From NCBI GenBank assembly GCA_963796795.1, contig CAWCNA010000003.1:1-57265 (forward strand): a DNA stretch of 57,265 nucleotides, in the 5' to 3' direction. A model generated the notes under the pieces. That model made no database searches. It had not been told where the DNA came from and worked only from the letters and a program-made list of their open reading frames with translations. Shown in pieces: positions 303 through 52,700 of the stretch (the stretch's first letter is position 1; each line of letters starts with the position of its first letter). The translations under genes and the position numbers were made by a program. The stretch is from Candidatus Adlerbacteria bacterium (GTDB taxonomy: Bacteria; Patescibacteriota; Minisyncoccia; Phycocordibacterales; SBAW01).

Positions 303-687
303 GTTCGTTCAAAGTTAAATCTGCTAGTGCCAGTGCTTTTCGCACCAGCTCTTTTTGTGCTGGCGTTAATTCTTCGATCACATTTACACGCCCCTCAATT
401 TCGACCTTGGTCTTGTAGCTTGGGTGATTGTGTTTGAGCCACGCGACAATGGCAGTGATGTTGCGATCCTTAACCGCATTAATGAGCTGGCTTTCCGCGA
501 GGTCGTTTACCAACGAACGTCCATCGAGAAGCGCATCATCTACTTGCTTGGAGAACTCCTTGTCTTTCTTTTTCCAGTTGTAGAAAGACACGCGGCTAAG
601 CCCCACTTTATCGCACGCGATCTGTACTATTGGCGTCTTTTTGAGTTGTTCCAGCAACAACTCTTTGGCGCGTTTACTCTCCCTCAT
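292..687 (-). CDS. terminase small subunit-like HTH DNA-binding protein
   Basis: 131-aa ORF with an HTH-like N-terminus (KTPIVQIACDKVGLSRVSFYNWKKKD). It lies immediately upstream of the TerL start and overlaps it. Confidence 0.5.
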   Translation of the reverse strand: MRESKRAKELLLEQLKKTPIVQIACDKVGLSRVSFYNWKKKDKEFSKQVDDALLDGRSLVNDLAESQLINAVKDRNITAIVAWLKHNHPSYKTKVEIEGRVNVIEELTPAQKELVRKALALADLTLNEHGI

Positions 688-1457
688 AGGCGTTTAGCTT
701 TAAGGCCGGTAAGTTGCTCCCAGCGACGTATTGCGGTTAGGCAGTACTCCTCGTCGACTTCGATTGCAAAGCATTTGCGCTTTGTTTGCTCGCACGCAAG
801 GAGTGCGGTGCCGCTGCCGAGAAAACCGTCGTACACTGTTCCACCTATTTGTGTGGAGTTGAGAATGAGGCGGCGGATAAGGCCGACCGGCTTGGTGGTC
901 GGATGCAGCTTGCTCTTGGCAGGGCGCGGATAGAATAGGATCGATTTATCCTTGGAGCGGCGGAAGTGATGCGTGCCGTACCATGCGTAGAGGATGAGTT
1001 CGTGCTGCGGGGCGTAGTCTAGCCTGCCGATGACCGACTGCGATTTCATCCATATCAGCAACTGCGCGAACTTAAACCCCGAATCAATAATTCCGTCGTG
1101 CAAAGGCCAAATCATTTTGTCAGCATTGAAGATGTAGGCCGCGTTCTTTTTTGAGAGGAATGGTTTGATAGCATCGAGCCATGCTTGGCTAAACGCGGAG
1201 TACTCAGCGTTTGACTGCAACTGATCGTTTTGAATAATTTTGTCTTTCGAGAGTTTTTGGAAGTTGCGTTTGGATTCCACGACGCCTACGCCATATGGAG
1301 GATCAACGCAGATAAGGTCAATCTTTACGCTGCCTATGAGGTGTTGCAGCAAATCTCGATCGCGACAGTCGCCGTAAGCAAGGCGGTGGTCGCCGAGCTG
1401 CCAGATAGTGCCGGGCTTAATTGAGCTTGCGGGCTTTTTCTCCAGTTGCGTGTTCAT
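684..1457 (-). CDS. DNA methyltransferase (N4/N6 family, DPPY type)
   Basis: 257-aa ORF with the catalytic motif CVDPPYGVG and the SAM-binding motif DGFLGSGTALLA. Confidence 0.85.
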   Translation of the reverse strand: MNTQLEKKPASSIKPGTIWQLGDHRLAYGDCRDRDLLQHLIGSVKIDLICVDPPYGVGVVESKRNFQKLSKDKIIQNDQLQSNAEYSAFSQAWLDAIKPFLSKKNAAYIFNADKMIWPLHDGIIDSGFKFAQLLIWMKSQSVIGRLDYAPQHELILYAWYGTHHFRRSKDKSILFYPRPAKSKLHPTTKPVGLIRRLILNSTQIGGTVYDGFLGSGTALLACEQTKRKCFAIEVDEEYCLTAIRRWEQLTGLKAKRL

Positions 1458-2698
1458 ATCGCGCGATGATTAGGTCAATAAAGATGGGTTCTATTTCAGC
1501 CATAAAGCACACACGCTTCATGGCGTTTGCGGCTATGAGCGTCGACCCACTCCCGCCAAAAAGGTCTAATATCGTGCCGCCTGGCTTCGTACAGCGCTTT
1601 ATAGGGCGTTCATGCAGGGTCACGGGCTTCTGAGTGGGGTGCTGGTATTCCGAGCCTGATATGCGCTTAGCGAGCCATATATCCATGAGGTCCATAACGT
1701 CATCTAGCAGCTTGTTGCCAGAGGGTCCAAGTTCCTTGTTAAGCACCTCGGCAAAGTTGAGGGCTACCGGCGAGAGATAGGGTTTGCCGCGTAGGGCATA
1801 AACGCAAGGCTCATAACACTTATTCCATGCCACACCGGGGGTCGGGTTGGCCGCCCCTTTTATCCACAGACAGGTGCGCTTGTTCTCAAGTCCGAGTTCT
1901 GCAAACAAGTCCTGTACCATGCCCGTGTATTTTTGGTCGCACCAGTAGTAGGCATGCACATCGGGTTTGGCGACCGAGAGTGCGTTCTCCATCGTGCGCT
2001 TGAGAAAAGTGCGGTAGTCGGCATCTTTTTTGAAGTCTTGCACGGTACCACCGTAGTTGGCTTTGCCTCCAATGCCGCCGTTGTAGTCGAGCGAAATATT
2101 ATAGATTGGGTCACAATAAATTAAATCTATCTGCGTCTTGCCGACCAACTTCTTTACCGTTTCCGGGTCGAGCGAGTCGCTGCAAATAAGGCGATGCGGC
2201 CCAAGTGCATAAATGTCCCCGAGCTTTGCTTTGGCCTTTTTGATTTTCTTTATCTCCTTATCAACATCAAACTGGTCATCGGTTACTTCCAGCGAGTCGG
2301 CAAAGATAACCGAAAGGTCGCTGTCGTCGAAGCCGGAGATGAGCATGGTATCTAGCTCGAAGTACTCCGAGAGCATCTCGTAATCCCAAGATCCTTGCAC
2401 GCGGTTGCTGGTCAGCAGATACTGCTCGTACTCTGCTTTGGAGAGCTTGCGGTTCGGCACACGCACGTCGATTTTCTTGTCGCCATGACCGAGCAGTTGC
2501 ATTACCGCGATACGCTGATGTCCAGCAACGATTTTGTTGTCGGTATCGATGGCCGGTATCTCTACTAGCCCAAACTTTTCTAAACTTTGAGTCGAGATCA
2601 GCGATTTGCTTCTCCGACATCTTGCGAGGGTTCTTTTTAAAGGGGAGCAAATCCTTGACCCTGCGCTGCTCAGTAGACCAAACCAGTTGCTTTGCCAT
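1417..2698 (-). pseudogene. ParB-like nuclease domain / DNA methyltransferase fusion, frame-disrupted as sequenced
   Basis: Frame 1 (2698 down to about 2600) gives MAKQLVWSTEQRRVKDLLPFKKNPRKMSEKQIADL. The +1 frame continues SLEKFGLVEIPAIDTDNKIVAGHQRIAVMQLLGHG (ParB motif), then the methylase motifs CDPIYN and DLFGGSGST. One extra base near 2585-2605 (A-run) separates the frames. Confidence 0.75.
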
Positions 2699-2810
2699 AT
2701 GTATAAGTGAGAAGAGGGGTTTTACAAGCCTCCTCTCTTAGCTACTGCTGAGATTTCGGCAGAGGCCGAATATATGGCTAGGAATATGCAGATTTGTTTT
2801 TCAGATAGAC

Positions 2811-2839
2811 GAAAACACCCGCCGATATTTCGGTGGGTG
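2811..2839 (-). terminator. rho-independent terminator candidate downstream of the 2854-3837 gene
   Basis: 10-bp stem cacccgccga/tcggtgggtg (one G-T pair) with a 4-nt loop. On the minus strand it is followed by TTTTC. Confidence 0.5.
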
Positions 2840-2853
2840 TGATGATGAATTAT

Positions 2854-3837
2854 TTAATCGAGGAAGTTTTGGGGGTCGTCCTCTTCTTTGTAGCTATCCT
2901 CATGGAACTTTTTGCCGGAGGAGTGCAGCTCGCCTTTGCCGCGCAAGAGAGCCTCGGGTTTGAGTGTAAATTTTGGGCGGTACCCTTCGACAGGGTCATA
3001 CTTCAAGAAAGGGTCGCTGCTAATCCCAAAAGCTTCTTGTAGTTTTTCGGATAAGTTCTGTTTCAATTTTTCACACGCGCCCGGAGTGATGCCAAGGTGG
3101 AGGGACAAACTCTTTATTGTCGGTTTAAACTTTTTTGTTTCTACTATCACTGCCATCTGTAAGAGAAGCCCCCATTGTTTGTCGGGAGTGCGATCCTTCG
3201 TATTCTTTCTGTCGAAATTGAGCGCTGCGTAGTCGTACGGTCCTATCAACTTTCTTTTGTAAAAGACGCGTAGAGTGTGTGCATCTGCTAATCGCAACTC
3301 CGTATCATCCCACGTTGCTCCGACGGGCATCGGCACAATTGAAATTGGGGCGACAGGAGTCTGTAGCACGTCTCTTTGGAGGAGTGCCGCTACTTTATCC
3401 ACGATAGTATCCATCGTGGATTCGTCTAGTCTCACTATCATAGGGCCAGCAGATCGGAGTCGGGGTACGTATTCAATCGGTTCCTCTATGCGGTAAGAAG
3501 TGAGTATAGGAGCCATCGTTGGCAATACGGGCAGTGAAATACTCTGTACCATTTCCTGCAAACGCACCCAGTCGTCAATGAACGGCTGCGTAGCGCGGGC
3601 GATCTCCTCTGCCGCACGCGTCATAGGTGCAAGTGCTTCGGTGATGCGTCGGTGCATCTCGGCCTGTTGCTCGATGAAAAGAGCGAAGGGTTTGTATGCC
3701 TGTGCCACCGACTCACTCATTTCTTTGTGTGTACGCCAGACATCCTCCAAGTCGCGCATCACGCCCGGTCCAAACATCTCCACAATATCGATTTCGCGTT
3801 CCTCTGCCATACCTTCAATTATATCCCAATTTGACAC
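2854..3837 (-). CDS. hypothetical protein (327 aa)
   Basis: Long ORF with a terminator downstream. No motif was recognised. It lies between the phage block and the IS element. Confidence 0.6.
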   Translation of the reverse strand: MSNWDIIEGMAEEREIDIVEMFGPGVMRDLEDVWRTHKEMSESVAQAYKPFALFIEQQAEMHRRITEALAPMTRAAEEIARATQPFIDDWVRLQEMVQSISLPVLPTMAPILTSYRIEEPIEYVPRLRSAGPMIVRLDESTMDTIVDKVAALLQRDVLQTPVAPISIVPMPVGATWDDTELRLADAHTLRVFYKRKLIGPYDYAALNFDRKNTKDRTPDKQWGLLLQMAVIVETKKFKPTIKSLSLHLGITPGACEKLKQNLSEKLQEAFGISSDPFLKYDPVEGYRPKFTLKPEALLRGKGELHSSGKKFHEDSYKEEDDPQNFLD

Positions 3838-3859
3838 TTTTTTAGTGTATTTTCTTGTG

Positions 3860-5118
3860 GGGTATCGGCAGCTTGCCTGGGATGCCAGCCAGCAATAAAC
3901 CCAATAAATTAAGTATGAAAACCAATGTACTCTCGTATGCCGATTACCAAAAGAAGCTTCAGCACCTTAACAGTCCTGAGGAGATAGCCGCCTTTGCCCA
4001 AGAGCTTATCGCTCCTGCACTGGTTCGGTTAGGCCAATCCTCAGCAACAGAAACTGACGAAGTGGAGGAAGAAGATATCGCTACTCCGGCGCGAAAAATC
4101 CCTAAACTCAAGATGAGTCGCAAGACAGTCATGACAAATCCGTGGCACGACCTTGTCGGCAACGAAAACGACGCGATGGTCATAGATCTTTACGCCAAAG
4201 GACTCACGACCCGCGACATCGCCAACTACATGAGAAATAATCATGGGGTTGAAATGTCGCAGCCATCGGTATCAGCAATTACCGACAAAGTGTTTCCCTT
4301 AGTCAAAGAGTGGCAGGCGCGTCCGCTCTCGCCATGCTATCCGATTATCTATCTCGACGGCATGCACTTCAAAGTGAGGGAGGCCGGGAAGATTGCGTCA
4401 AAGTGCGCGTACATCGCGCTCGGCGTAACACCGTTCGGGCAAAAAGAAATCCTCGGTATTTGGATTAGCGAAACCGAGGGCGCAAAGTTTTGGCTTAGCG
4501 TTTTGAGTGACATCAAAAATCGTGGTGTCGACGACGTGCTCATTGTCTGTGTCGACGGCCTCAAAGGATTTCCTGATGCCATCAAAACCATCTACCCGAA
4601 GGCTGAAGTGCAGAGCTGCATCGTGCATCAAATTCGTCACACGGTGATGTTCATTCCGCACAAAGACAAGGAGCAGTTCTGTATTGATCTTAAAAAAGTC
4701 TACACCGCTCACAACGAGGAAGCGGGGCGCGAGGCACTTCACGAAGTCATGGATCGTTGGCCGCAATATCGCTCGTACCTCAAATCGTGGGAAGACCGAT
4801 GGGCAGACTTGGCTCCGTTCTTTAGCTATCCGGAGCCAGTCCGCAAAACCATCTACACCACTAACACGATTGAAAACCTCAATCGCCAGTTTAGAAAAGT
4901 GACCAAGACAACCGTCGTGTTTCCGCACGATGATTCTCTCTTGAAATTGCTTTGGCTCGCTCAAACAGACCTCTCTAATAAGTGGACCATGCCGGTCAGG
5001 AACTGGGGAGAGGCCATGGCTCAGCTTACCATTCTGTTCCCGGATCGCGTGCAGTTCTAGCTCATTAATGACCATTAACTAACCGCTCGGCTGGCGTTTA
5101 CAGCGTGACACGGTACCC
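3860..5118 (+). mobile_element. IS256-family insertion sequence (boundaries tentative)
   Basis: Single mutator-type transposase gene. Candidate imperfect terminal inverted repeats are GGGTATCG...GCCAGCCAGC (3860-) and the reverse complement of 5118 (GGGTACCG...GCCAGCCGAGC). No clear target-site duplication was seen. Confidence 0.55.
3882..5060 (+). CDS. IS256 family (mutator-type) transposase
   Basis: Full-length similarity by eye to IS256 transposases (YLDGMHFKVRE..., CVDGLKGFPDAI, CIVHQIRH, TTNTIENLNRQFRKVTK). The start could be ATG 3882 or ATG 3915. Confidence 0.9.
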   Translation: MPASNKPNKLSMKTNVLSYADYQKKLQHLNSPEEIAAFAQELIAPALVRLGQSSATETDEVEEEDIATPARKIPKLKMSRKTVMTNPWHDLVGNENDAMVIDLYAKGLTTRDIANYMRNNHGVEMSQPSVSAITDKVFPLVKEWQARPLSPCYPIIYLDGMHFKVREAGKIASKCAYIALGVTPFGQKEILGIWISETEGAKFWLSVLSDIKNRGVDDVLIVCVDGLKGFPDAIKTIYPKAEVQSCIVHQIRHTVMFIPHKDKEQFCIDLKKVYTAHNEEAGREALHEVMDRWPQYRSYLKSWEDRWADLAPFFSYPEPVRKTIYTTNTIENLNRQFRKVTKTTVVFPHDDSLLKLLWLAQTDLSNKWTMPVRNWGEAMAQLTILFPDRVQF

Positions 5119-12841: not shown

Positions 12842-13327
12842 ATGGATACACAAAAAACACCAGAAGAATATTATAAGTCTCTCCCAAAAAAGTATATGGG
12901 CGCTGGAGCGCTTTTGTTTAATGAAGAGAGTAAATTTCTGATAGTAAAACCGACCTACAAACCTGGATGGGAAATTCCAGGAGGCATAGTTGAAGCGGAA
13001 GAAGCACCTGCCGACGCCGCAGTTCGAGAGATACAGGAAGAGATAGGACTTGAACTAAAGAATCCTACGCTGCTTTCCCTTCAGTATGTGCCCAATATAG
13101 ACAGCAAAGGAGATCGCCTTTTGTTTATATTTGATGGGGGAACTCTCAGCCAAGAACAAATAGACTTAATACATCTGCCTGTTACAGAACTTAGTGAATA
13201 TAAATTTATTTCAGAAACCGAAGTGCCGAGCTTCTTTGAAGACAAGAAGAACTTTCAAGATAGAATTTTAGCAGCGGTACAAGCTAAAAAACAGAACACG
13301 TTCTTTTATTTAGAGGCTAAAGAATAA
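12842..13327 (+). CDS. Nudix hydrolase
   Basis: Nudix box GGIVEAEEAPADAAVREIQEEIGLE. Confidence 0.85.
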   Translation: MDTQKTPEEYYKSLPKKYMGAGALLFNEESKFLIVKPTYKPGWEIPGGIVEAEEAPADAAVREIQEEIGLELKNPTLLSLQYVPNIDSKGDRLLFIFDGGTLSQEQIDLIHLPVTELSEYKFISETEVPSFFEDKKNFQDRILAAVQAKKQNTFFYLEAKE

Positions 13328-13347: not shown

Positions 13348-13806
13348 ATGAGAACCGTAAAGAAAGACATAGTATCGGCAGTTATTTACTCCAAAGAGGG
13401 GAAAATCTTTCAGGGGATGAAAGCATCCGATCCACATAATATTTATCACGACTGTTGGCATATACCTGGCGGAGGAGTTGAGCCTGGAGAAGAGTATCTT
13501 CACGCTCTTACTAGAGAATGCGAAGAAGAAATTGGTTTAGATATTAGTATCTATCCCATTGAATTGCTGGATGATAAGGGCTTTGGCAAAGGGGAGAAAA
13601 CCTTGCGTGATACAGGAGAGAGGGTTATCCAAGACATGCATTTTATTACCTACAAAATCACCATAGACAAATCTGCCACAGAAGTACCCATTCATCTTGC
13701 TGATAATGAATTTGTAAAATATGAATGGACTGAGCCAAAAGAACTAAAGAATAGAAAATTGACACCTCCGTCGGTAGAGCTATTTACCCGATTAGGTTAT
13801 CTTTAA
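13348..13806 (+). CDS. Nudix hydrolase
   Basis: Nudix box GGGVEPGEEYLHALTRECEEEIGLD. Confidence 0.85.
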   Translation: MRTVKKDIVSAVIYSKEGKIFQGMKASDPHNIYHDCWHIPGGGVEPGEEYLHALTRECEEEIGLDISIYPIELLDDKGFGKGEKTLRDTGERVIQDMHFITYKITIDKSATEVPIHLADNEFVKYEWTEPKELKNRKLTPPSVELFTRLGYL

Positions 13807-19796: not shown

Positions 19797-20294
19797 CTAT
19801 CTTTCTAACGTAACCCAGGAATATGCGAGCCCGTTGTGCTCGCGTTTTTCTTTTGAAATTTCTTTAGTAAATTCTTGTTCGTATTCAGGGAAAAATGTAT
19901 CCGCTTCTCTTGTATCGTCAATAAGGGTGAGATAGAGGCGGTCAACAAAGGGAAGTGCTTGTTTATATAAGTCAGCACCGCCGCCGATATGTATTTCTTC
20001 TTGATCTAATTCGCGAGCTTTTTCTAATCCTTCTTCAAGGGAATGAACAACTGAAACTCCTTCATATTTCCAATCTGCATCACGAGTTACAACAATATTA
20101 GTACGGCCAGGGAGTGGTTTGCCCAATATTGAAATAATAGATTCGAATGTTTTACGGCCCATGATTATTGGGTGTCCAAGTGTGAGTGCCTTAAAGCGCT
20201 TCATGTCTTCTGGAATATGCCACAAAAGCTCGTTGTTTTTCCCGAGCTCGCCGTTTTTGCCAATGGCTACAACTATAGCAACGCGTGCTGCCAT
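19797..20294 (-). CDS. folA: dihydrofolate reductase
   Basis: VAIVVAIGKNGELGKNNELLWHIPEDMKRFKALTLGHPIIMGRKTFESI. Confidence 0.9.
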   Translation of the reverse strand: MAARVAIVVAIGKNGELGKNNELLWHIPEDMKRFKALTLGHPIIMGRKTFESIISILGKPLPGRTNIVVTRDADWKYEGVSVVHSLEEGLEKARELDQEEIHIGGGADLYKQALPFVDRLYLTLIDDTREADTFFPEYEQEFTKEISKEKREHNGLAYSWVTLER

Positions 20295-20295
20295 A

Positions 20296-20931
20296 TTATT
20301 GTTCGGCAGGAAAATCTTTTTTAAGCTTTTTTATATCCCCGTTGAAAATGAACTTCATTTCGGATGCTTTTTCTTTTTTGCCTTTCTCGACAACATCCTT
20401 TTGATGCCAGCGGCTTTTTCGTGGAGTCACTTTATGAGCAAGCTCTTCAAATACAATCTGGCAGAAGCGCTCACCCGGGTGGAGTTGGATAACTTGGGAG
20501 CGAGTGTTGTTACGGATAGGCAGTGTAAGAGGGCCCTCGTATCCGGAGTCGATAATGCCAGTCAAATCTACCGACAACCCTTTTCTGTTTACTGACGAGC
20601 GGGGATAGAGCACGGCCATCAGGTCATCAGGCACTTTTATTGTTTCAAACGTCGAGACTAATACATATTCTTCAGGGAGAAGGTCAAAATGCTGTCCCTG
20701 CTCAAGCTCGACAATGTCGAAATATTCCGGCCCATGGTCGCGGAGAGGGTCGATAGCTATAGCTTCGCGGCCGCGGTCGGTCAAACGCCATGCTTTTGGC
20801 ACAAGGAAAGTGAACCCGAGTCGGAGATCAACGGCATGCGCCTGCAATTGAAAACTATCGAGGCTCGGCGAAAATACGATGTTTTTTTCTCGAACGCGCT
20901 TTAAAATTTCTTCTTTCGTAAGTACTGACAT
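20296..20931 (-). CDS. dcd: dCTP deaminase family protein (dCTP deaminase/dUTPase fold)
   Basis: AVDLRLG..., YPRSSVNRKGLSVDLTGIIDSGYEGPLTLPIRNN, and FCQIVF. Confidence 0.85.
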   Translation of the reverse strand: MSVLTKEEILKRVREKNIVFSPSLDSFQLQAHAVDLRLGFTFLVPKAWRLTDRGREAIAIDPLRDHGPEYFDIVELEQGQHFDLLPEEYVLVSTFETIKVPDDLMAVLYPRSSVNRKGLSVDLTGIIDSGYEGPLTLPIRNNTRSQVIQLHPGERFCQIVFEELAHKVTPRKSRWHQKDVVEKGKKEKASEMKFIFNGDIKKLKKDFPAEQ

Positions 20932-20935
20932 GTTT

Positions 20936-21772
20936 TTATAAGACTACCTGCAAACCTTTAATTGCTTCAAGTGGATTGTACTGTGACATTATATTTTCGA
21001 CGATCTCATCGAGCAGTTTTTTGTCTTTTTTCTCTGCACGATCAAATGCATTTTTTGGAAGGGTTACATGAATGGCCGGATGTTTGTCATGGCGTCCTAG
21101 TATCTCTTTTGCCGCTTCGTACTGATTGTCGTATATATGTGCGTTTGAAACGGAGTGAGAATATATTCCGGGTTTTACTCCAAGTTTCTGTGCAAGGATT
21201 ATCTGTAACAACGCGAACCCTGCAACGTCCGCCGGGAGTCCCAATATAACGTCATTTGACCGCACTATATTGTGCAAGTGCAACCTTCCTCCAATGATGT
21301 TTACAGTAAATGTATATGGGCAGGGAACATTCTTTTTCTTAAACAAACTTAACCCGTCGGTTGCCGGGTCCCAGGTCACGACAACGCCGTGGCGTGAACT
21401 CGGTTCTTTTTTGAGAAGATCAACAAGAAGCCCGAGCTGGTCGCGGCCGAAATGTTTTCTCCATCGATATCCGTAGGCAACCGTAACTACATCGGCAGGA
21501 TTCGTAAAATTATCCCAAATTTTTGTGTAGTCCCGCAAAAAATCTGCTGGCTTGCGCACGCCTGCAATAAACCAAATCTGTTCAGCGACGAACATTTTTA
21601 TAGGAATTTTGCGTAATGTGAGAATGGGAAATCCTTCTTTTTCTATATCTATAGAGAAGTGCATGCCGGGAATCGCGGCAGTCTCGTGCTTTGTCCGCTC
21701 CGACATTTCCCGGATACCTTTGTCGACGATAGTGCCCAATAATTCCTGGTAGATAGAGTCGAATCGGGCCAT
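20936..21772 (-). CDS. thyA: thymidylate synthase (ThyA) family enzyme with Asp at the uracil-selecting Asn position
   Basis: Ungapped match to E. coli ThyA across the active site: PC(151)PYTF..., R171-S-N-D174, LGLPAD(182)V, and AH(212)IY. Asp182 is codon GAC at 21229-21227. Confidence 0.85.
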   Translation of the reverse strand: MARFDSIYQELLGTIVDKGIREMSERTKHETAAIPGMHFSIDIEKEGFPILTLRKIPIKMFVAEQIWFIAGVRKPADFLRDYTKIWDNFTNPADVVTVAYGYRWRKHFGRDQLGLLVDLLKKEPSSRHGVVVTWDPATDGLSLFKKKNVPCPYTFTVNIIGGRLHLHNIVRSNDVILGLPADVAGFALLQIILAQKLGVKPGIYSHSVSNAHIYDNQYEAAKEILGRHDKHPAIHVTLPKNAFDRAEKKDKKLLDEIVENIMSQYNPLEAIKGLQVVL

Positions 21773-21843
21773 GGCGCAATTATAGGGGCGGGGGAGGTAA
21801 GCAGCAAATAGGCATCTTTTGTCTCGGGTGGTATAAATTTAGG

Positions 21844-23426: not shown

Positions 23427-24695
23427 ATGGATTCTTACGATCACATCAAAAAACAAGACGCAGAATTATACGACGTCATTCAGGGCGAAGAGACACGCGA
23501 GAGGGAAGGGCTCGAACTCATTCCGTCCGAAAACTATGTTTCAAAAGCAGTGCGCGAAGCTCAAGGGTCAATTCTTACTAACAAATATTCGGAAGGCTAC
23601 CCGGGCAAGCGATACTACGGCGGGCAGGAGTTTACTGATAAAGCTGAGATACTTGCGATTGAACGCGCGAAGCAACTCTTCGGTGCAAAATTTGCAAACG
23701 TACAACCGCACTCAGGGGCCTCGGCAAACATGGGGTTGTATTTTGCATTGCTCCAGCCGGGTGACACGGTGCTTGGCATGGACCTCAGTCACGGCGGCCA
23801 CTTAACGCACGGACATCCGGTTACCTACATCACAAAGTTCTTCAACTTCGTCCGTTATAAAATGAAGAACACCGATACTGGTGAAATTGATTACGAAGAC
23901 ATGCGCCGTGTTGCGCTTGAGACAAAGCCGAAGATTGTACTTGGTGGATATTCTGCCTACTCGCGCGAGCTTGATTACGCAAAAATGGCAGACATTGCCA
24001 AAGAGGTTGGAGCATATTCAGTAATGGATGCCGCACACATCGCGGGGCTTATTGCGGGCGGCGCCTGCAAAAATCCATTCGACTATGGCTTTGATGTTAT
24101 TACTTCAACAACGCACAAAACATTACGCGGTCCGCGCGGAGGGCTTATTCTCACGCGCGACAGCGAAGAAATTGCAAAGAAAATAGACAAGGCAGTATTC
24201 CCCGGCATGCAGGGCGGTCCATTGATGCACGTGATTGCAGGAAAAGCAGTCGCATTCGGCGAAGCATTGCACCCGTCATTTAAAACCTATACTGCGCAGA
24301 TATTGAGAAACGCGAAAGCAATGGAAGAAGTCTTCCGCGCAAGAAATATCCGTATGCTCGGTGGTGGTACTAGTAATCACTTGATACTCGCAGATGTATT
24401 CGGCTCGCTCGACATCCCCGGCAAAGAAGCAGAGGCAGTACTCGACACAGTTGGCATCACTCTTAACAAAAATGTTATAGCAGATGATACCCGCTCGCCC
24501 ATGGACCCTTCCGGTATCCGTTTTGGTACGCCAGCAATCACTACACGCAAATTGATGGAGAAGGAAAGTGCGCGCGTTGCTGAGCTGATGATAGACGCCC
24601 TTCAAAATCGCGCCGACCAAACAAAGTTAAACAATATTCACCAAGAGATTAAAGACCTCTGCGCGAAATTCCCCATACCGGATTCGTTCGTGTAA
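23427..24695 (+). CDS. glyA: serine hydroxymethyltransferase
   Basis: LIPSENYVS, GYPGKRYYGG, and TSTTHKTLRGPRGG (the PLP lysine). Confidence 0.95.
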   Translation: MDSYDHIKKQDAELYDVIQGEETREREGLELIPSENYVSKAVREAQGSILTNKYSEGYPGKRYYGGQEFTDKAEILAIERAKQLFGAKFANVQPHSGASANMGLYFALLQPGDTVLGMDLSHGGHLTHGHPVTYITKFFNFVRYKMKNTDTGEIDYEDMRRVALETKPKIVLGGYSAYSRELDYAKMADIAKEVGAYSVMDAAHIAGLIAGGACKNPFDYGFDVITSTTHKTLRGPRGGLILTRDSEEIAKKIDKAVFPGMQGGPLMHVIAGKAVAFGEALHPSFKTYTAQILRNAKAMEEVFRARNIRMLGGGTSNHLILADVFGSLDIPGKEAEAVLDTVGITLNKNVIADDTRSPMDPSGIRFGTPAITTRKLMEKESARVAELMIDALQNRADQTKLNNIHQEIKDLCAKFPIPDSFV

Positions 24696-29405: not shown

Positions 29406-32400
29406 ATGGACGATTTGAAGCAGGGTGGCGAAGAGCTGCACCCGGAGATAGTGAATAAGCCCAAAAGTGCCTTTGCTGTTAGAGAGGAAAAGACCTTGGC
29501 ATTTTGGCAGGACAAAGAAATTTTTCAAAAATCACTGGATAAACACGCTCCGAAGGGGGATTTTGTGTTTTATGATGGTCCACCGTTTGCGAACGGTCTC
29601 CCGCACTACGGGCACTTACTGCAAAGCTCCATTAAGGATGCAATTCCGCGCTACCGCACTATGCAGGGCTACCGCGTGCCTCGCCGCTGGGGATGGGATT
29701 GTCATGGCCTGCCGGTTGAAAACCTTGTTGAAAAAGAAATGGGTTTTAAAGGCAAACGCGACATCGAAGACTTTGGCATTGCGAATTTCAACAAGGCTGC
29801 GCGCACGAGCATCATGAAGGACGTTGCCGACTGGAAACGCATCATCCCGCGCATCGGCCGCTGGGCCGACATGGAGAACGACTACAAGACCATGGACGGC
29901 ACGTACACCGAGTCGGTCTGGTGGGCGTTTAAGAATTTGCACAGCCGCGGCCTTATTTACGAAGGTTTCAAGGGTATGCATTTTTGCCCGCGCTGCGGCA
30001 CGACGCTTTCAAATAATGAAGTGGCGCAAGGTTACATGGATATTGATGATATCGCCGTCACCGTAAAATTTCCGCTTGTCGATGAGCCAGAAACTTCTAT
30101 TCTTATTTGGACCACCACACCGTGGACACTGCCGGGGAACACCGCTGCCGCGGTAAATGCAGATGCAACGTATGTTAAAGTCCGTACCAATGAGGGGTTT
30201 GTAATCGTTCTAAAAGAATTAGCAACAAAAGTATTGGGAGAAGATATAAAAGTTTTTAGCGAGATGCTCGGTAAAGATTTGGTTGGTAAGCGATACGAGC
30301 CACCCTTTTCGTATTTTAAAGATACGCTCCATAAACATAAAACTCATGCATATAAAATCTATGCAGCGCCGTACGTAACACTTGAGGATGGTACGGGCAT
30401 CGTGCATTTGGCACCTGGGTACGGTGCAGAAGATTTGATCTTCGCGCAGAAAGAAAAAATTCCGCTTATCCAGCACGTCACTGACGAGGGTAAATTTATT
30501 TCAACCGTCGTAGATTTTGCCGGCTTGCCTGTGAAGCCAAAAGGCCGCCATATGGAGACGGATGCAAAAATTGTTGAGCATCTGCAGAATCGGGGGTTGC
30601 TGTTCCATCAGGAAAAAATAAATCACTCCTATCCTCATTGCTGGCGCTGCGACACGCCACTTTTAAACTGGGCGTCGAACTCATGGTTTGTAAGCGTTGC
30701 AAAAGTAAAAAAAGATTTGCTTGCACAAAATAAAAAAGTTTCCTGGGTGCCAAAGAGCACGGGGGAGGGTCGATTCCAGAAAGGCCTTGAAACTGCACCG
30801 GATTGGGCGATTTCGCGCAGCCGTTATTGGGGCGCACCATTGCCCGTGTGGCGCCACAGCAAAACCAAAGAAATAAAAGTCGTGGGCTCAGTCGACGAAC
30901 TCCTTACAATGGTGCGCCGCTCGGGCAACACATATTTTGTTATGCGTCATGGTGAATCGAATTCAAATGTCATCGACACAGAAGATGTTGCTGGCGACCC
31001 TGACAATCATCTAACTGAAAAAGGTAAAAAGGAGGTCATGGTTGCAGCGCGAGCGCTTTCATCAAAAAAAATAGATTTGATTGTTACTTCGCCGTTTTTG
31101 CGCACTAAAGAAACGGCACAGCTGCTGGCGCAAGAGTTTGGCCTGTCGGATTCTGCAATTATGACAGACACCCGTTTGGGTGAGGTCGAGCATGTAACGC
31201 CCGACCTATGCCGTGCCGTGGGAGAATTTATTTTTGAAATAGAACGTCGTTACAGTGGTAAAAATGTACTCGTTGTTTCTCATGGAGGAACTATGTGGGC
31301 ATTGCAACAAGTAGCGGCTCGCCAGTCGAGGCTTGGATTTAATCGCACCGCCATGCTTGGTAATGCGGAGTGGGCAGAATTACCTTTTGTTCCGTATCCG
31401 CACAACGACGACTACGAACTCGATCTGCATCGCCCATATATAGATGATATTCCACTAGGAGATTCGCTCGCGGGGGAGTGGAAGCGTGTGCCGGATGTGT
31501 TTGACTGCTGGTTTGAGTCGGGCTCGATGCCGTACGCGTCGAACCATTATCCGTTCAAGAAAAATAATTTCAATCCAAAAAAGGTATTTGGATTTATGCC
31601 TAAAGGCTACCCAGCCGACTTTATTGCCGAGGCCGTCGACCAAACTCGCGGTTGGTTTTATTCGCTGATTGTTTTGGGAACGGCGCTCTTTGGAAAGTCG
31701 CCATATAAGAATGTCATTACGACCGGGTTTATTAATGCAAGCGATGGTAAAAAAATGAGCAAGCGGCTCAAAAACTATCCCGACCCCTTGGAGTTAATAG
31801 ACAAATACGGCGTCGATTCCTTGAGGTATTACATGCTGTCGTCGCAATTGGTGCGTGGCGAAGACTTGAGCTTTAAGGAACAAGGTGTTGAAGAGGTTTC
31901 AAAAAAACTTTTGATGCGCCTCGACAACGTTGTGTCGTTTTATGAACTGTATGCAAACAGCACGCCACGTTCAAACGAAAGCACGGCTGCGCTTGACCGA
32001 TGGATCGTTTCGCGTCTTGCAGAGCTAGTACAGCAAACGACCGAAGGCTTTGAGAAATACGAACTTGATGTTGCAACCCGGCCACTTGCTGCGTTTATTG
32101 ACGACCTTTCAACGTGGTATCTGCGCCGCTCGCGTGATAGGTTTAAAAGTGATACTCAAGATAAAAAAGACGCCCTTGCCACGTTGCGTTTTACGCTGTA
32201 CATAGTTTCGCACGTCATGGCTCCAGTTATGCCATTTTTCGCAGACGAACTATTTGGCCGTATAAAAGAAGAAGGCGATGCCGAAAGCGTGCATCTTTCG
32301 AGCTGGCCTGAAGCTGGAAGTGTTGATATAGATCTAATTTCCGGGATGTCTTTTGTTCGCAGCCTTTCCACTATTGCTCTTAAACAACGAGAAGAAGCTA

Positions 32401-32760
32401 ACCTCAAAGTCCGTCAACCACTTCGAGAAATTTACTGTTATCTCTGCCGTCGGTTTGCCTTCAGATTTGCATGAGATTCTTTCAGAGGAAATCAATGTTA
32501 AAGAAATTATATTCACATTGGGTGAACAGGGGAAAGCCTCGTACGTACTCGATACAGAATTAACTTCCGAACTTAAAGAAGAGGGAATTGTGCGTGATAT
32601 TGTGCGCAAAATCCAAGGCTGGCGTAAAGAACAGAATCTCCAGATTACTGACAGAGCTTCATACGTGCTGACCGCAACAGAAGAAGAAAAGGCAGCGGTA
32701 GAAAAAAATCGCACAAAAATTATGGAACTGACAGGGTTGAATGCTTTACACATCGAATAA
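29406..32760 (+). pseudogene. ileS: isoleucine--tRNA ligase carrying an inserted histidine-phosphatase domain; one frame disruption near the 3' end as sequenced
   Basis: HIGH (PHYGH), KMSKR, CP1 editing region. The main ORF ends at 32474 (..VRQPLREIYCY..). The +1 frame continues (E)KFTVISAVGLPSDLHEILSEEINVKEI...EGIVRDIVRKIQGWRK, the IleRS C-terminus. The shift is near 32424-32433 (gagaaattt). Confidence 0.9.
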
Positions 32761-36728: not shown

Positions 36729-37790
36729 ATGAACGAGCGGGAAGTGAACGTCCACATCACGTCGGGGACTATAATCAAGACAATACTATTTCTTATTTTA
36801 GTGTCACTGCTGTGGTTTTTGCGCGATATCGTCCTTATTGTGCTTTCCGCAGTAGTCATTGCTTCAGCTATAGAGCCGGGTGTGCACGGGTTGATGCGCC
36901 ACAAGTTTCCTCGCCTCCTCGCCGTTGTCAGTGTGTACGTACTGGTGATAGGAATATTTTTTGGCATACTCTTCTTCTTCATCCCGCCGATTTTGAATGA
37001 TGCGGCCGGCTTTCTTACGCAACTTCCCACGACGCTTTCGAATCTAAACATCACTGATGCTACGCACGGGCTGCTACCGTGGGGCAACGTGGGAGATACA
37101 CTTTCGTCGGCGAATATCCTTCAGAATCTTTCAAATTCGCTCCACGACTCAACAGGCGGCGCCTTCAGTGCACTGTCGGCGTTCTTTGGTGGTGTAACAT
37201 CTTTCGTGCTTATTGTTGTCTTTTCGTTTTACTTTTCCGTGCAGGAAACAGGCGTTGATGATTTTTTGCGCGTTGTAACCCCAATACAGGAACAGGCGTA
37301 CGTGCTTAACCTCTGGCGCCGTTCGCAAAATAAAATAGGGAAGTGGATGCAGGGGCAGCTCGTCCTCGCGCTTATTGTTGGTATTTTGCTGTACCTCGGG
37401 CTTTTGATTCTCGATGTGCAACACGCATTGCTGCTTGCGATTTTGGCCGGCGTGTTCGAATTGATCCCTGTCTTCGGCCAAATTTTGGCAATGATTCCTG
37501 CGGTAGCCATTGGCCTCGTAACCGGCGGCGTCACGGAAGCGTTCTTAATCGCGGGACTCTATATAATTGTGCAGCAATTTGAAGCGCATCTTATCTATCC
37601 GGTTGTTGTCAAAAAAGTCGTTGGCGTGCCACCCCTGTTGGTTATTCTCGCACTGCTTATCGGGTTTAAGCTAGTTGGATTTTTGGGCGTACTTCTCTCG
37701 GTTCCTATTGCTGGTGCTATTCAGGAATATGTTGCCGACATCGATCGCGATAAAAAACGTGCACTCGCCAAGCAACTTGCGAAAGAGTAA
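36729..37790 (+). CDS. AI-2E family transporter (PerM-like permease)
   Basis: Polytopic, with a conserved C-terminal segment (ELIPVFGQILAMIPAVAIG...GFLGVLLSVPIAGAI). Confidence 0.85.
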   Translation: MNEREVNVHITSGTIIKTILFLILVSLLWFLRDIVLIVLSAVVIASAIEPGVHGLMRHKFPRLLAVVSVYVLVIGIFFGILFFFIPPILNDAAGFLTQLPTTLSNLNITDATHGLLPWGNVGDTLSSANILQNLSNSLHDSTGGAFSALSAFFGGVTSFVLIVVFSFYFSVQETGVDDFLRVVTPIQEQAYVLNLWRRSQNKIGKWMQGQLVLALIVGILLYLGLLILDVQHALLLAILAGVFELIPVFGQILAMIPAVAIGLVTGGVTEAFLIAGLYIIVQQFEAHLIYPVVVKKVVGVPPLLVILALLIGFKLVGFLGVLLSVPIAGAIQEYVADIDRDKKRALAKQLAKE

Positions 37791-39227
37791 TGAAGAAAAC
37801 GTTTTACCTCACTACACCAATTTTTTATCCAAATGCGAAACTGCATTTGGGCCACGCGTATATCACAACCTTAAGTGATGTCATAGCCCGTTACCACCGA
37901 CTAATCGGAGACAAAACTTATTTTTTAACTGGTTCGGACGAAAATACTCAAAAAATGGTTGACGCTGCCGTAAAGGAAGGCAAGGAGCCTTTGGAATTTC
38001 TTGATGGCATAGTCACAAGTTTTAAAGGGCTATTCCAAGAACTCAATATTTCGTACGACCAATTTATTCGAACAACGGACCAAAAGGCCCATTGGCCTGG
38101 AGCTCAGGTGCTGTGGCAAAAACTTGTAGATGCTGGAGATATATATAAAAAAGAATACGAAGGTCTCTACTGCGTTGGCCATGAATCGTTTATTACTGAA
38201 AAAGAATTGGTTGATGGAAAATGCCCAGATCATGGCACAGTTCCGGAATTCTTGAAAGAAGAAAATTATTTTTTCCGTCTTTCGAAATATACGTTTGAAA
38301 TTCAGCGCCTCATTTCTTTGCGACGAACTGCATGTCGTGCCAGAAACACGCAAGCACGAAATGTTGTCATTTATAGAAAATGAAGGTCTTGAAGACGTGA
38401 GTTTTTCACGTCCGCGCAAAGCGCATTGGCCTCAAGGGCTTGGAGTTCCTGTACCAGGTGATGACTCGCAGATCATGTATGTCTGGTGTGATGCGCTTGC
38501 GAACTACATCACCGCCCTTGGGTATGGGCGCGATGATAGATTGTATAAAGAATTCTGGCCGGCAGACGTCCACATCCTTGGTAAGGACATTCTGCGCTTT
38601 CATGCCGCCATTTGGCCTGGAATGCTGTTGTCAGCCCAACTGCCCCTGCCGAAGAGTATTCTCGTCCATGGAATGATCTTGTCTGGAGGGAAAAAAATGA
38701 GTAAGACGCTTGGTAATATCATTGACCCCGCAGAACTCTTGCAAGAATATGGCACTGATGCGGTGCGTTATTTTCTAGCGCGGCACATCTCTCCCTTTGA
38801 AGACGGCGATATCACGCGCGAAAGTTTTAAGGAAATTTACAATGCCAATTTAGCAAACGGCCTAGGTAACCTCACTGCGCGCATTATGCAGCTTGCAGAA
38901 ACAAATTTGCCTGAGCCGGTGAAAGTAGAATTCACTGGCTACCCAAAAGAATTTACCGACCTGCTTGATGCCTTCAAAATAAACCAAGCGTTCGACTATA
39001 TCTTTATGCGCATCCAGGCGCTTGACCAAGCTATTACCCAGACTGCGCCATTTAAGGTAGTTAAAACTGACCCTGAAAAGGGAAAGGAACTGATTACCGA
39101 TTTAGTTAAAGAGCTCGCTGCAATTGATTTATTACTCGAACCCTTTATGCCGGAAACTTCCAAAAAAATAATCGAGGCCATAATGGCAAACAAAAAACCG
39201 GAAAATCTATTTGTTCGCAAAGACTAA
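37790..39227 (+). pseudogene. metG: methionine--tRNA ligase, one frame disruption as sequenced
   Basis: TTPIFYPNAKLHLGHAY (HIGH) in ORF 37790-38383. The +1 frame continues DELHVVPETRKHEMLSFI...KMSKTLGN (KMSKS). The shift is near 38312-38322 (T-run in catttctttg). Confidence 0.9.
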
Positions 39228-39230
39228 GAC

Positions 39231-39695
39231 ATGGCCCACCTCCACGAAAAAATAGATTTCACTGCAAGTGTATATCTTGTTCAAGACAATAACGTATTGC
39301 TCCACAAACATAAAAAGTTGGGCATCTGGCTGCAACCGGGTGGACATATAGAGTTGGATGAAGATCCAACCCAAGCAGCCCTTCGCGAAGCAAAAGAAGA
39401 AACAGGGTTCGATGTCGAATTAGTGGGTATACAGAGTCCAGAAACACAGCAGTTTAATCGTTCACGCACATTGCTTTTGCCGATGTTTCTTAACAGGCAT
39501 AATTTTGACGCAACGCATGAGCATATAGATTTTTCGTATTTTGGCCGTATTGTTGGGGGCACCTTAGTGCCGGAAGATGGTGTGGAGATGCGCTGGTTCA
39601 CCCGCGATGAAATTGAAAAGAACGAAATACATCTTCTTGAAGACACCCGAAGTTATGCTTTGGCAGCGCTCGATTATTTTGCAAAGGCTCAATGA
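39231..39695 (+). CDS. Nudix hydrolase
   Basis: Nudix box GGHIELDEDPTQAALREAKEETGFD. Confidence 0.85.
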   Translation: MAHLHEKIDFTASVYLVQDNNVLLHKHKKLGIWLQPGGHIELDEDPTQAALREAKEETGFDVELVGIQSPETQQFNRSRTLLLPMFLNRHNFDATHEHIDFSYFGRIVGGTLVPEDGVEMRWFTRDEIEKNEIHLLEDTRSYALAALDYFAKAQ

Positions 39696-49769: not shown

Positions 49770-52700
49770 ATGACTATTACTCAGAGTTCAACACGTTTCG
49801 TCGCTACCGTCGGCGGCGCAGTAGTTGCTCTCGGACTTTTGTTCGGAGCAGTTGCAGCACCAGTCCACGCGTCAGCACTGACCTCTTCTCAGGTCAGCGC
49901 GATTGTCTCTCTCCTCCAGTCCTTCGGGGCTGATGCGGGAACCATCGCAAACGTACAGGCATCGCTCACTGGCGGTACCGTTACTACCACAACTGGTAGC
50001 ACAACGACCACCTCATCAGGCGGTTCTTGCACGACAACCTTTACTACCGACATGACTGTCGGTTCAACCGGTTCGAGCGTCATGGCACTTCAGAAGTTCC
50101 TCAACATGAGCGCGGCAACTATGGTTGCTTCCTCAGGTGCAGGTTCTCCTGGCATGGAAACTTCAACCTTCGGTCCTGCTACAAAGGCAGCCGTTATGAA
50201 GTTCCAGACTGCCAATGGCATCTCACCGGTTTCTGGATACGTCGGTCCGTTAACTCGCGCAAAGCTTAATTCGCTCTGCACTTCGTCAACAACCACGACC
50301 ACCACAACCACGGGCGGTACGACAACTACCACCACGGGTACTGGCACTGCAACGATCTCGGCAGCGGCACAGCCTGCAAACGGCATCGCTCCGAACAATG
50401 CAGCTCGCATTCCGTTCACTAAGTTCACTGTTTCCGCTTCAGGCGGCAATGTAACACTTAACAGTGTCACAGTTGAACGCGATGGTATCGCGTCCGACCA
50501 GGCCTTCACTGGCGTAATGCTCTTGGACCAGAATGGTAACCAGATTGGTATCTCGAAGACTTTGAACAGCAATCACCAGGCGGTGGTTGGTTCAGCAGTT
50601 GTTATTCCGAGCGGCACGTCGATGACCTTTACGGTTGCGGCAAACCGTGGTAACACCACCACCTTCGCAGGTCAGATCGCTACCTTCTCTGTCGTTACGG
50701 TTAACACCAACGCGGCAGTAACAAACGGTTCGCTCCCAATTAGCGGTGCAAGCCAGACAATCAACGAGGCTTCAAACCTCATTGGTTCAATCACAGCTTC
50801 AAAGGGTACAAATGACCCAGGTGCTGCTAACAGTGAAAACGTAGGTCAGAACTTCGTACATCTTCTCTTCGATCCGCCTTACGGCAGGTTCATCTGAAGA
50901 CACATACTTGAAGTCAATCCGCTTCCACCAGGTTGGCTCCGCTTCGCAGTCATACCTTGCAAACGTTGTGGTCGTAGTTGATGGCACTTCATACCCGACA
51001 ACGGTATCAAGCGACAATTACTACACTGCAAACTTCCCAGGTCAGGGCCTTCTTCTCCAGAAGGGCTTCTCCAAGGATGTTGCAATCCAGGGTGACATCG
51101 CTAACGGCTCTAACACGACAGTTGAGTTCGATGTCCAAAAGGCATCTGACATCAACGTCGTCGGCGCACAGTATGGCTACGGCATCTTGCCATCATTCTC
51201 AGCTGACAGCAGTGTCTGTGTCGCAGCCGGCACAAACTGCGGTGCAGTTAAGGCAAGTGATGATCCTTACTACGCTAGCTTCACGACAACCATCTCGGCA
51301 GGTATCATAACTGTTTCGACTTCGAACGCAGTTACCTCCGGCAACGTCGCAATCAACCAGCAAAACCAGATCATCGGCGGTTACACCGTCCAGGATCAGG
51401 GTGAGGCGGTTACTGTCGGCAAGATGGTCTTCCAGGTTACTGAAGGCAGCTCGGCCGCAACCTACGCTGACTTGACGAGCGTTTCGCTCGTTGACCAGAA
51501 TGGTCACGTCCTTGCAGGCCCGGTTGATGCTACGAACGGTACCCAGTCGGATGCAATCGTAACCTTTACGGATACGGTGACTCTTCCGGTTGGCACCACG
51601 CAGCTCATGCTTGAAGGCAAGCTCGGCACGAACTTCAAGACCAATGACACTATCCAAGCTTCGACAACTCCGTCGTCTCAGTGGACAACTGTCACTGGCC
51701 AGACAACTGGCCGCAGCCTCACGATCTCTCCGGCAAGCTCTCTCACGAGCGCTTCTCGAACAGTCAAGGCAGCAAGCTTGAATGTTTCGGTCTCGTCGAC
51801 ACCTATCGCGCAGACGGTTATCGCTGGTTCAAACCAGTTCACCTTCGCAAACATCATCCTTGATGCAACTGCGTCTGGTGAAGATCTCCGCCTCACGACT
51901 CTCCCGATCCGCTACAGCTTCACTGGTACGTCAAACAACTTGACGAACTGCCAGCTGTACAACGGCACAACGATGGTCTCTGACCAGCATGTGTACAATC
52001 CGGCTTCAGGTCTTACTACTAATACACTCGTTGGGTTCTCGCTCGACAGCGGTGGTGTCGTTATTCCAAAAGGAACAACGGTTACTCTCTCGCTTGACTG
52101 CGATGTACGCAGCGGTGCAACAGGTACGTACAACTTCGGTCTCGCCTCAGGCGACGTTGTTGGTGCTTCAGGTGTAACCAGCGGCTCGACTGTCAACGGT
52201 GTGTTGACAACGAACGCAGGTAACGTCATGAACGTATCTTCAGGTGGCACTATATCGGTCGCACTTGACTCTTCAACCCCGACCTTCGGCGTTGTGTCTG
52301 CAGGCTCAACAGGTGTTGACCTTGGCCACATCCGTCTTGCCGGTACGAACGAGGCAATTGACCTCCGTCAGGTTGCCCTTGTTCTCTCAGGCGGCACCCG
52401 CACTGACCTCGTAAATAACTCGGTCACTCTGTGGGATGCTACGACGAACACGCAGGTTGGTACGGCGGTATTCCCGTCAGGCAACAATGCAACTTCGTCA
52501 CAAATTGCGTCGGGTGCATTCCGCATCCCGGTCAACGGTTCACGTGTCCTCATCATCAAGGGTGACATTGCTGCAATCAGCACCAATGGTCCTTTGACAG
52601 CATCGGGCGACACGCTCAAGGTCAACTACGACGGTGCTAACGTCACTGGTACCAACGGTACCTACGGCGTCGGTGTCTCATCTGGCCAGAACCGCCAGCC

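Follow-up and report, generated by a model that had tools for sequence, protein, structure and literature searches.

The DNA analysed here, referred to as the window, is a stretch of 57,265 nucleotides from a Candidatus Adlerbacteria bacterium (contig CAWCNA010000003.1). It contains two divergent strings of genes separated by 71 bp. The minus strand carries a gene of the thymidylate synthase (TS) family, a gene of the dCTP-deaminase (Dcd) family that starts 4 bp downstream of it, and the gene for dihydrofolate reductase (DHFR). The plus strand carries, in this order, the genes for a deaminase, dTMP kinase (Tmk), a MazG-type pyrophosphohydrolase and serine hydroxymethyltransferase (SHMT). All coordinates are given in Table 1. 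The TS protein has an aspartate at the position of Asn177 in E. coli ThyA, and the reaction that this enzyme and its neighbours may carry out is the subject of this report. A sequence-only reading of the window had drawn attention to this residue and proposed that the enzyme may act on dCMP instead of, or besides, dUMP. Residues are numbered below as in the E. coli proteins unless they are given as residues of the window protein.

Table 1. Features of the thymidylate operon in the window
Feature	Position	Strand	Basis
TS-family gene, Asp177 type, 278 aa, ATG start	20936..21772	-	PF00303, pocket signature
GAC codon for Asp182, at the E. coli Asn177 position	21227..21229	-	read directly
dCTP-deaminase-family (dUTPase-fold) gene, 211 aa, without the deamination Glu	20296..20931	-	TIGR02274 111 bits
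DHFR, last gene of the TS / Dcd-like / DHFR string	19797..20294	-	PF00186 5.9e-52
Divergent intergenic region, TS gene / deaminase gene, 71 bp	21773..21843		open reading frame coordinates
Divergent dCMP-deaminase-family zinc deaminase, 162 aa	21844..22332	+	PF00383 7.4e-11, PF14437
dTMP kinase (Tmk), 4-bp overlap with the deaminase stop codon	22329..23024	+	PF02223 2.2e-21; NF005923 117 bits
Small MazG-type all-alpha nucleotide pyrophosphohydrolase, 111 aa	23034..23369	+	PF03819 2e-12
SHMT, methylene-tetrahydrofolate supply	23427..24695	+	PF00464 9.6e-150

The TS homolog and its substrate pocket

The 278-residue TS protein matches PF00303 (Thymidylat_synt) over residues 7-253 (E=1.1e-50) as well as 124 TS sequences of the PDB. 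HMMER alignments with solved thymidylate synthases run without gaps across the segment 'rsndvilglpadvagfall' (paired with 'rsadiflgvpfniasyall'), confirming the gap-free active-site alignment described by the sequence-only reading. On a MAFFT map to E. coli ThyA, residues C151, R171, S172, D174, D182, H212 and Y214 correspond to C146, R166, S167, D169, N177, H207 and Y209, respectively. The nucleophilic Cys, the phosphate-binding Arg/Ser pair and the His/Tyr pair are kept, and the spacings between Cys and Arg (20), Arg and Asn/Asp (11) and Asn/Asp and His (30) hold, in agreement with the initial description. The catalytic set of the superfamily is complete (Cys146, Arg166, Ser167, Asp169, Glu58, Tyr94, His207 and Tyr209). 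The minus-strand bases 21229-21227 do read GAC, so that the residue at the Asn177 position is indeed Asp.

The distribution of the gene was assessed by scanning one genome per GTDB species. Relatives were found in 348 genomes; the locus counts given below refer to the best 80 of the 348, all of which are Parcubacteria-type bacteria of the candidate phyla radiation (CPR), and the 81 orthologs are those of these 80 species-level genomes plus the window. The closest relative among the scanned GTDB genomes (95%) is a Ca. Adlerbacteria metagenome-assembled genome, and named homologs come from Candidatus Kaiserbacteria, Paceibacterota and Parcubacteria. Whether the Asp is kept in related genomes, a question raised at the outset, has a clear answer: it is present in 81 of 81 orthologs, and in 118 of 120 homologs with at least 73% identity, the other two giving no match to the search pattern. 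C146, R166, S167, D169, E58, Y94, H207, R21 and R126 are also found in all 81 orthologs; Tyr209 is replaced by Trp in five. Conservation of the Asp in proteins with intact catalytic residues indicates that the TS gene is functional and that the Asp is under selection. Its strictness rules out a sequencing error or a pseudogene.

A phmmer search with E. coli ThyA matches the TS open reading frame alone, and the claim that this is the only TS homolog thus holds for the 57-kb window. No second TS turned up, either in the window or among 84 related loci, nor did searches with T. maritima ThyX and E. coli Tdk reveal either protein in the same set; for ThyX and a second ThyA, the absence covers the window and about 12 kb of flanking sequence in 80 genomes.

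Core-chromosome genes of the window include those for ribosomal proteins L11, L19 and S6, NusG, EF-P, FtsK and RecO, and for Arg-, Ile-, Met- and class II tRNA synthetases, in a synteny shared with other Parcubacteria. A prophage or a mobile island is ruled out by the flanking genes (L11, NusG, SIMPL, ArgRS and IleRS), which are syntenic in Parcubacteria. Recent acquisition from a phage is without support, no IMG/VR relative of the TS exceeding 41% identity. Judged from these sequence comparisons, the Asp-type TS is a vertically conserved core-chromosome gene across Parcubacteria.

In canonical, dUMP-specific ThyA, Asn177 forms hydrogen bonds to uracil O4/N3 and keeps dCMP out. Position 177 sets the substrate of the family, Asn going with dUMP and Asp with dCMP (PMC8670742), and the Asn-to-Asp change shifts the E. 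coli and L. casei enzymes towards dCMP (PMC8670742, PMC13326640). Position 147 ranks second among modification-associated positions in viromes (PMC8670742). A bulky/hydrophobic or non-acidic residue 143 is associated with a methyl product, Asp or Glu with a hydroxymethyl product, and D169N is the mark of 5-hydroxylases (PMC13326640). In the window protein, positions 143/147/165/169/177 are occupied by N148/P152/V170/D174/D182 (Table 2).

Table 2. Pocket residues in the window protein and in characterised enzymes (E. coli numbering)
Protein	143	147	165	169	177
Window protein and its clade	N	P	V/I	D	D
Xp12, PaMx74, RcSimone-Hastad	N	P	L	D	D
E. coli and human TS	L	H	Q	D	N
T4 gp42	D	T	M	D	D

The window protein shares with canonical ThyA (E. 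coli, human; EC 2.1.1.45) the fold, the full catalytic apparatus and the link to DHFR. It departs from it not only by N177D but also by L143N, H147P, Q165V (V/I in the clade), R127H (H/Q in the clade) and W83F, with F176A/S in the clade. Thus, the canonical Asn177 and the residues His147, Gln165 and Leu143, which surround the pyrimidine and methylene site, are replaced by Asp, Pro, Val and Asn, in contrast to a set of 20 Asn-type representatives where His147 is found in 20/20 and Leu143 in 19/20. The combination of Asp177 with a non-acidic residue 143 and Asp169, by which a dCMP C5-methyltransferase is recognised, is present in the window protein (D182, N148 and D174). More specifically, N143, P147, a hydrophobic residue at 165, D169 and D177 are common to the window protein and the enzymes of Xanthomonas phage Xp12 and Pseudomonas phage PaMx74, phages with 5-methylcytosine replacing cytosine in their DNA. 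The Xp12 TS and five of seven metagenomic Asp-type TS enzymes made 5-methyldeoxycytidine (5mdC) in vivo, and deaminases encoded in cis with such enzymes convert 5-methyl-dC nucleotides to dT nucleotides (10.1101/2024.12.05.627091).

The sequence-only reading had allowed for either a methyl or a hydroxymethyl product. A methyl product is the one predicted; the hydroxymethylase option is disfavoured by the Asn at position 143 (Asn148, against Asp145 in gp42) and by the adjoining DHFR gene. A likeness to T4 gp42 had also been pointed out, and the gp42 motif had been quoted correctly (RSNDVVFGFRNDY, a 100% match to PDB 1b49). The 'RSND' string, the Asp at 177 and a hydrophobic residue at 165 are indeed common to the two proteins. 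Yet this likeness had to be discarded as a lead: the gp42 match amounts to only 35 bits, and 'RSND' is also present in the genuine ThyA of B. subtilis. Furthermore, the Asp of gp42 at position 143 is associated with water attack, and gp42 makes no dihydrofolate (DHF), whereas the window TS gene is linked to DHFR. As to the 5-hydroxy-dCMP synthase of the RB69 type, its D169N change is absent, Asp174 being present in 81/81 orthologs. Separately, in a subgroup of Asp-type TS cluster representatives (P0124, P0170, P0222 and P0269) the catalytic Tyr94 is replaced by Thr and Gln165 is retained; this subgroup may constitute a further functional variant.

Similarity over the whole protein was examined next to the pocket residues. 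An exhaustive HMMER search over 1.84 billion cluster representatives placed 127 Asp-type sequences among the top 150, with 68 Asp-type clusters ahead of the first Asn-type one. The Xp12-type enzymes are the best-scoring characterised relatives (BLASTP bits: RcSimone 180, PaMx74 171, Xp12 164, at 34-36% identity), ahead of E. coli ThyA (102 bits, 28% identity) and human TS (98 bits). Seven pocket residues were then masked in the query against circularity and the protein compared with size-matched profiles: the Asp-type profile gave 284±8 bits and the Asn-type profile 221 bits, a gap of 63 bits. Scores with the curated TS models are divided: the window TS passes TIGR03284 but falls far under the cutoffs of all NF0024xx/PRK01827 models (e.g., 140 vs 327). 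PHROGs did not separate Asp-type from Asn-type TS.

In phages, Asp-type TS genes come in modules. That of Xp12 comprises a HAD hydrolase, the TS, a deaminase and DHFR; those of PaMx74 and RcSimone-Hastad a MazG-like pyrophosphatase, the TS, a deaminase and DHFR. An IMG/VR sample of 80 TS relatives (21 Asp-type, 59 Asn-type) showed the same association. The Asp-type genes have a deaminase (17/21), DHFR (14/21) and MazG (18/21) as neighbours; the Asn-type genes have a deaminase once in 59 and DHFR and MazG never (p=1e-12 for the deaminase contrast). Deaminase, DHFR and MazG are likewise missing near 56 viral TS homologs from IMG/VR that combine D143, N147, N165 and D169 with N177; an acidic residue 143 with Asn177 is the pattern expected of dUMP hydroxymethylases. 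Some cluster representatives have the Asp-type TS fused to a dCMP-deaminase domain (P0141), a PRA-PH/MazG-like pyrophosphatase (P0162) or an HNH endonuclease (P0155).

The window TS has the neighbours of the Xp12/PaMx74 enzymes, namely a dCMP-deaminase-family gene, DHFR and a nucleotide pyrophosphatase. Outside the clade, the two Asp-type proteins closest to it (52-54% identity) are encoded on short phage-like contigs, and each of these contigs has a divergently oriented gene for a deaminase from the family of the window deaminase (E=2e-27 and 5e-21). On a terminase-encoding phage contig (L176), the Asp-type TS gene is followed by a dUTPase-fold and a dCMP-deaminase-family gene (2890-3303 and 3254-3694), a trio that is a viral counterpart of the TS, Dcd-like and deaminase genes of the window. 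The window module nonetheless differs from that of Xp12/PaMx74 in several respects. The TS is only about 35% identical and Arg127 is His or Gln in its clade; the module resides in a cellular core chromosome, with Tmk and SHMT added; the deaminase belongs to another lineage; the pyrophosphatase slot is taken by a Dcd-family protein without the catalytic Glu; and the module is predicted to serve the supply of thymidylate rather than hypermodification of DNA.

Operon composition and the partner enzymes

Neighbouring genes were counted within 6 kb or less of the TS gene in the 80 GTDB loci. The deaminase is present in 79, the Dcd-like gene in 77, DHFR in 67, SHMT in 64 and Tmk in 30; the loci without deaminase or without Dcd-like gene are cut by contig ends. 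The divergent arrangement of TS and deaminase genes is found in 79 of the 80 genomes. A canonical trimeric Dut (21 loci) and the small MazG (16 loci) are mutually exclusive in the operon (Fisher p=0.008). Their never occurring together suggests that Dut and MazG fill the same functional slot, as in non-orthologous displacement. A promoter scan of the operon, including the 71-bp intergenic region, found no consensus in that region and no sites above those of shuffled sequence. Between 19600 and 24900, 15 terminator-like hairpins were counted (5.8±2.4 in shuffled sequence), one of them directly downstream of the DHFR gene (19729-19709, minus strand).

The Dcd-like protein passes the TIGR02274 dCTP-deaminase equivalog (cutoff 92.8 bits). 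At the position of the catalytic Glu138 of E. coli Dcd, however, it has Pro138 (codon 20520-20518), the segment 'LTLPIRN' aligning with 'ITLELxN' of solved Dcd enzymes, and Pro is found there in 75/75 orthologs. What it has in common with Dcd and DCD-DUT enzymes, besides family membership, are S111, R115 and D128, retained throughout the orthologs, D128 being the counterpart of the dUTPase general base. Besides Pro138, it is set apart from them by a Lys-rich C-terminal tail that is unique to it and by an acidic residue in 'GY(E/D)G'. The Glu is retained in relatives from viruses and archaea, the SIRV1 dUTPase among them. With the Glu gone and the hydrolysis residues S111, R115 and D128 kept, the sequence predicts that the protein should hydrolyse a pyrimidine dNTP and not deaminate it. 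The Dcd-like gene occurs together with a separate Dut or MazG in 37 of the 80 loci, which argues that it is not simply the dUTPase. From this coexistence and from the universal presence of the gene in the operon, we infer that the protein would provide an entry step, dCTP to dCMP; a role as dUTPase is also possible.

The deaminase keeps the zinc motifs H(A/S)E (HSE in the window) and CxxC, and is otherwise divergent. It scores 30 bits with the ComEB equivalog (cutoff 219), its best match among PDB sequences (E=1e-3) places it loosely among dCMP deaminases, and it constitutes a family of its own with about 1,200 proteins. An AlphaFold model (predicted local distance difference test, pLDDT, 88.9) resembles best the dCMP deaminases of T4, PBCV-1, S. 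mutans and human, with TM scores of about 0.5. As in the window, the 5-methylcytosine (5mC)-selective deaminases of phages (mSCD) combine PF00383 and PF14437 and are encoded in cis with an Asp-type TS. They make dT nucleotides from 5-methyl-dC nucleotides, the role proposed here for the window deaminase. By analogy with these enzymes, the protein is predicted to convert 5-methyl-dCMP, or another 5-methyl-dC nucleotide, to the thymidine nucleotide. The 5-methyl-dC deaminase trait is polyphyletic in phages, and the phage deaminase mSCD-B5 uses triphosphates, not monophosphates (10.1101/2024.12.05.627091).

Proposed reaction order and its alternatives

We consider it somewhat likely, from the residues and gene associations described above, that the TS gene encodes an Xp12-type, cytosine-specific dCMP C5-methyltransferase working in a route from dCMP through 5-methyl-dCMP to dTMP. 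The case for dCMP methylation is strengthened by the co-variation of pocket residues, the masked-profile comparison, the phage-like neighbourhood and the homologs whose products have been determined. It also seems reasonably probable that this Asp-type enzyme has become fixed in the Parcubacteria core chromosome within a conserved thymidylate operon. In the predicted scheme, the Glu-less Dcd-family protein would cleave dCTP to dCMP and pyrophosphate. The Asp-type TS, going by its signature and by the tested homologs, would transfer the methylene group of methylene-tetrahydrofolate (CH2-THF) to dCMP, yielding 5-methyl-dCMP and DHF. DHFR and SHMT, by homology, would regenerate CH2-THF from DHF through THF. 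The divergent deaminase, in analogy with the 5mC-selective phage enzymes, would release NH3 from 5-methyl-dCMP to give dTMP, which Tmk, again by homology, would phosphorylate to dTDP. MazG or Dut may serve to remove dUTP or other unwanted dNTPs. The net reaction would equal that of the classical route. Since methylation would come ahead of deamination, thymidylate would be made without passing through dUMP.

Several observations weigh against this scheme. The best Asn-type representatives reach 150 bits, nearly as much as the Xp12-type enzymes, and the TS equivalog TIGR03284 is passed (120.9 bits, cutoff 108.35). A neighbour-joining (NJ) tree computed in numpy with 100 bootstraps puts the window clade within an all-Asp group with bootstrap values of 55% or less, backbone support too weak to place the clade. 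The window deaminase has no significant similarity to that of Xp12 (E=0.02), which precludes a claim of homology, and its 5-methyl preference is pure inference. The SIRV1 dUTPase, though Glu-bearing, is a member of the same family as the Dcd-like protein. Finally, the gene set is just as complete for the classical route (dCMP deaminase or dUTPase to dUMP to dTMP), about one quarter of the related operons contain a canonical Dut even though its product, dUMP, would lead nowhere in the proposed scheme, and both the gene fusions and the gene adjacency are compatible with either reaction order.

The alternative that survives best, possible though on balance unlikely, is that the protein is a working TS that methylates dUMP, or both dUMP and dCMP, and tolerates the Asp (e.g., protonated, in a hydrophobic pocket). 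The deaminase would then make dUMP from dCMP, and Dcd-like protein, Dut and MazG would make it from dUTP. The full gene set for this pathway is at hand (deaminase, dUTPase-fold proteins, DHFR, SHMT and Tmk), with a canonical Dut inside the operon in 21/80 genomes, and the TIGR03284 cutoff is passed. Because ThyX, Tdk and a second ThyA are lacking in the window and the 84 related loci, the Asp-type TS must ultimately account for dTMP. Papers on CPR bacteria also treat thyA as an ordinary thymidylate synthase gene (PMC12455944, PMC11974145). On the other hand, no natural Asp-type enzyme specific for dUMP is known, and the same Asn-to-Asp change turns two bacterial TS enzymes towards dCMP (PMC8670742, PMC13326640). 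In addition, four pocket positions have shifted jointly to the Xp12 pattern and are strictly conserved, in the Dcd homolog it is specifically the residue required for dU nucleotide formation that has been lost, and a streamlined genome would have to maintain three redundant sources of dUMP.

At the opposite end, the system could resemble that of Xp12 in full, with 5-methyl-dCTP incorporated at replication, genomic C partly or wholly replaced by 5mC, and the deaminase converting 5-methyl-dCTP to dTTP. This we regard as very unlikely. The module does resemble that of phages with complete 5mC substitution, the triphosphate specificity of mSCD-B5 (10.1101/2024.12.05.627091) would fit, a kinase gene accompanies the module (Tmk, or a deoxynucleoside kinase (dNK)-like gene in locus L004), and pyrophosphatases that could deplete dCTP are present. 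Yet a cell requires dCTP, and there is no sign of its exclusion from DNA; the kinase resembles an ordinary dTMP kinase; base composition is normal, with a GC content of 48% and a CpG observed/expected ratio of 1.16 (a weak test); and replicative substitution by 5mC is not known from any cellular organism.

Least credible of all is a gp42-like dCMP hydroxymethylase, an RB69-like 5-hydroxy-dCMP synthase or a MilA-like CMP hydroxymethylase: Asp177 is common to all three types, but the window protein has Asn at 143 where hydroxymethylases have Asp or Glu, keeps D169 and so is not of the D169N type, barely resembles gp42, adjoins a DHFR gene that implies DHF production and hence reductive methylation, and shares its operon with Tmk and SHMT, both pointing to thymidylate supply.

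Other genes of the window and implications

Some further features of the window may be recorded. The IleRS-type class I tRNA synthetase (29406-32474, plus strand, 1022 aa) has a His_Phos_1 domain (residues 511-595) inserted in the middle of its catalytic domain, an architecture also found in the ortholog at locus L002. Methionyl-tRNA synthetase appears to be divided between two overlapping open reading frames on the plus strand, 37790-38383 (197 aa, N-terminal part) and 38295-39227 (310 aa, C-terminal part), which could reflect a frameshift, a sequencing error or a genuine split gene. Near the start of the window, two neighbouring minus-strand genes for N6/N4 DNA methylases (684-1457 and 1417-2502) precede an open reading frame of 327 aa that has no annotation (2854-3837) and a Mutator-family transposase (3855-5060); the segment from 684 to 5060 may be a restriction-modification island. 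Three NUDIX hydrolase genes lie on the plus strand within the 57 kb, two in tandem (12842-13327 and 13348-13806) and one at 39231-39695, and some of their putative products could be active on modified dNTPs. Two large plus-strand open reading frames, 50908-53346 (812 aa) and 54076-56313 (745 aa), have no Pfam match.

Literature searches for Asp-type TS in CPR bacteria or other cells, for a cellular dCMP methylase and for a bacterial 5-methyl-dCMP route returned phage work only. Both the enzyme type and the module have been described in phages; what appears to be new is that they are fixed as the housekeeping thymidylate operon in a cellular lineage, with a Glu-less Dcd protein as partner. That ThyA or ThyX makes thymidylate from dUMP is taken to hold for all cells, and the reverse scheme is known only from phages with 5mC DNA. 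If the proposed route is correct, a large and widespread bacterial lineage would make dTMP in reverse order, methylating dCMP first and deaminating it afterwards. The names "thymidylate synthase", "dCTP deaminase" and "dCMP deaminase" would then need changing in hundreds of genomes, along with CPR metabolic models, and a new conserved family of candidate 5mC-selective deaminases would become available, useful for methylation sequencing. Should the full Xp12-like scheme apply, a canonical base would be replaced at the level of the nucleotide pool, for the first time in a cellular organism. The findings also suggest that cellular and phage modules for nucleotide modification are linked in evolution.

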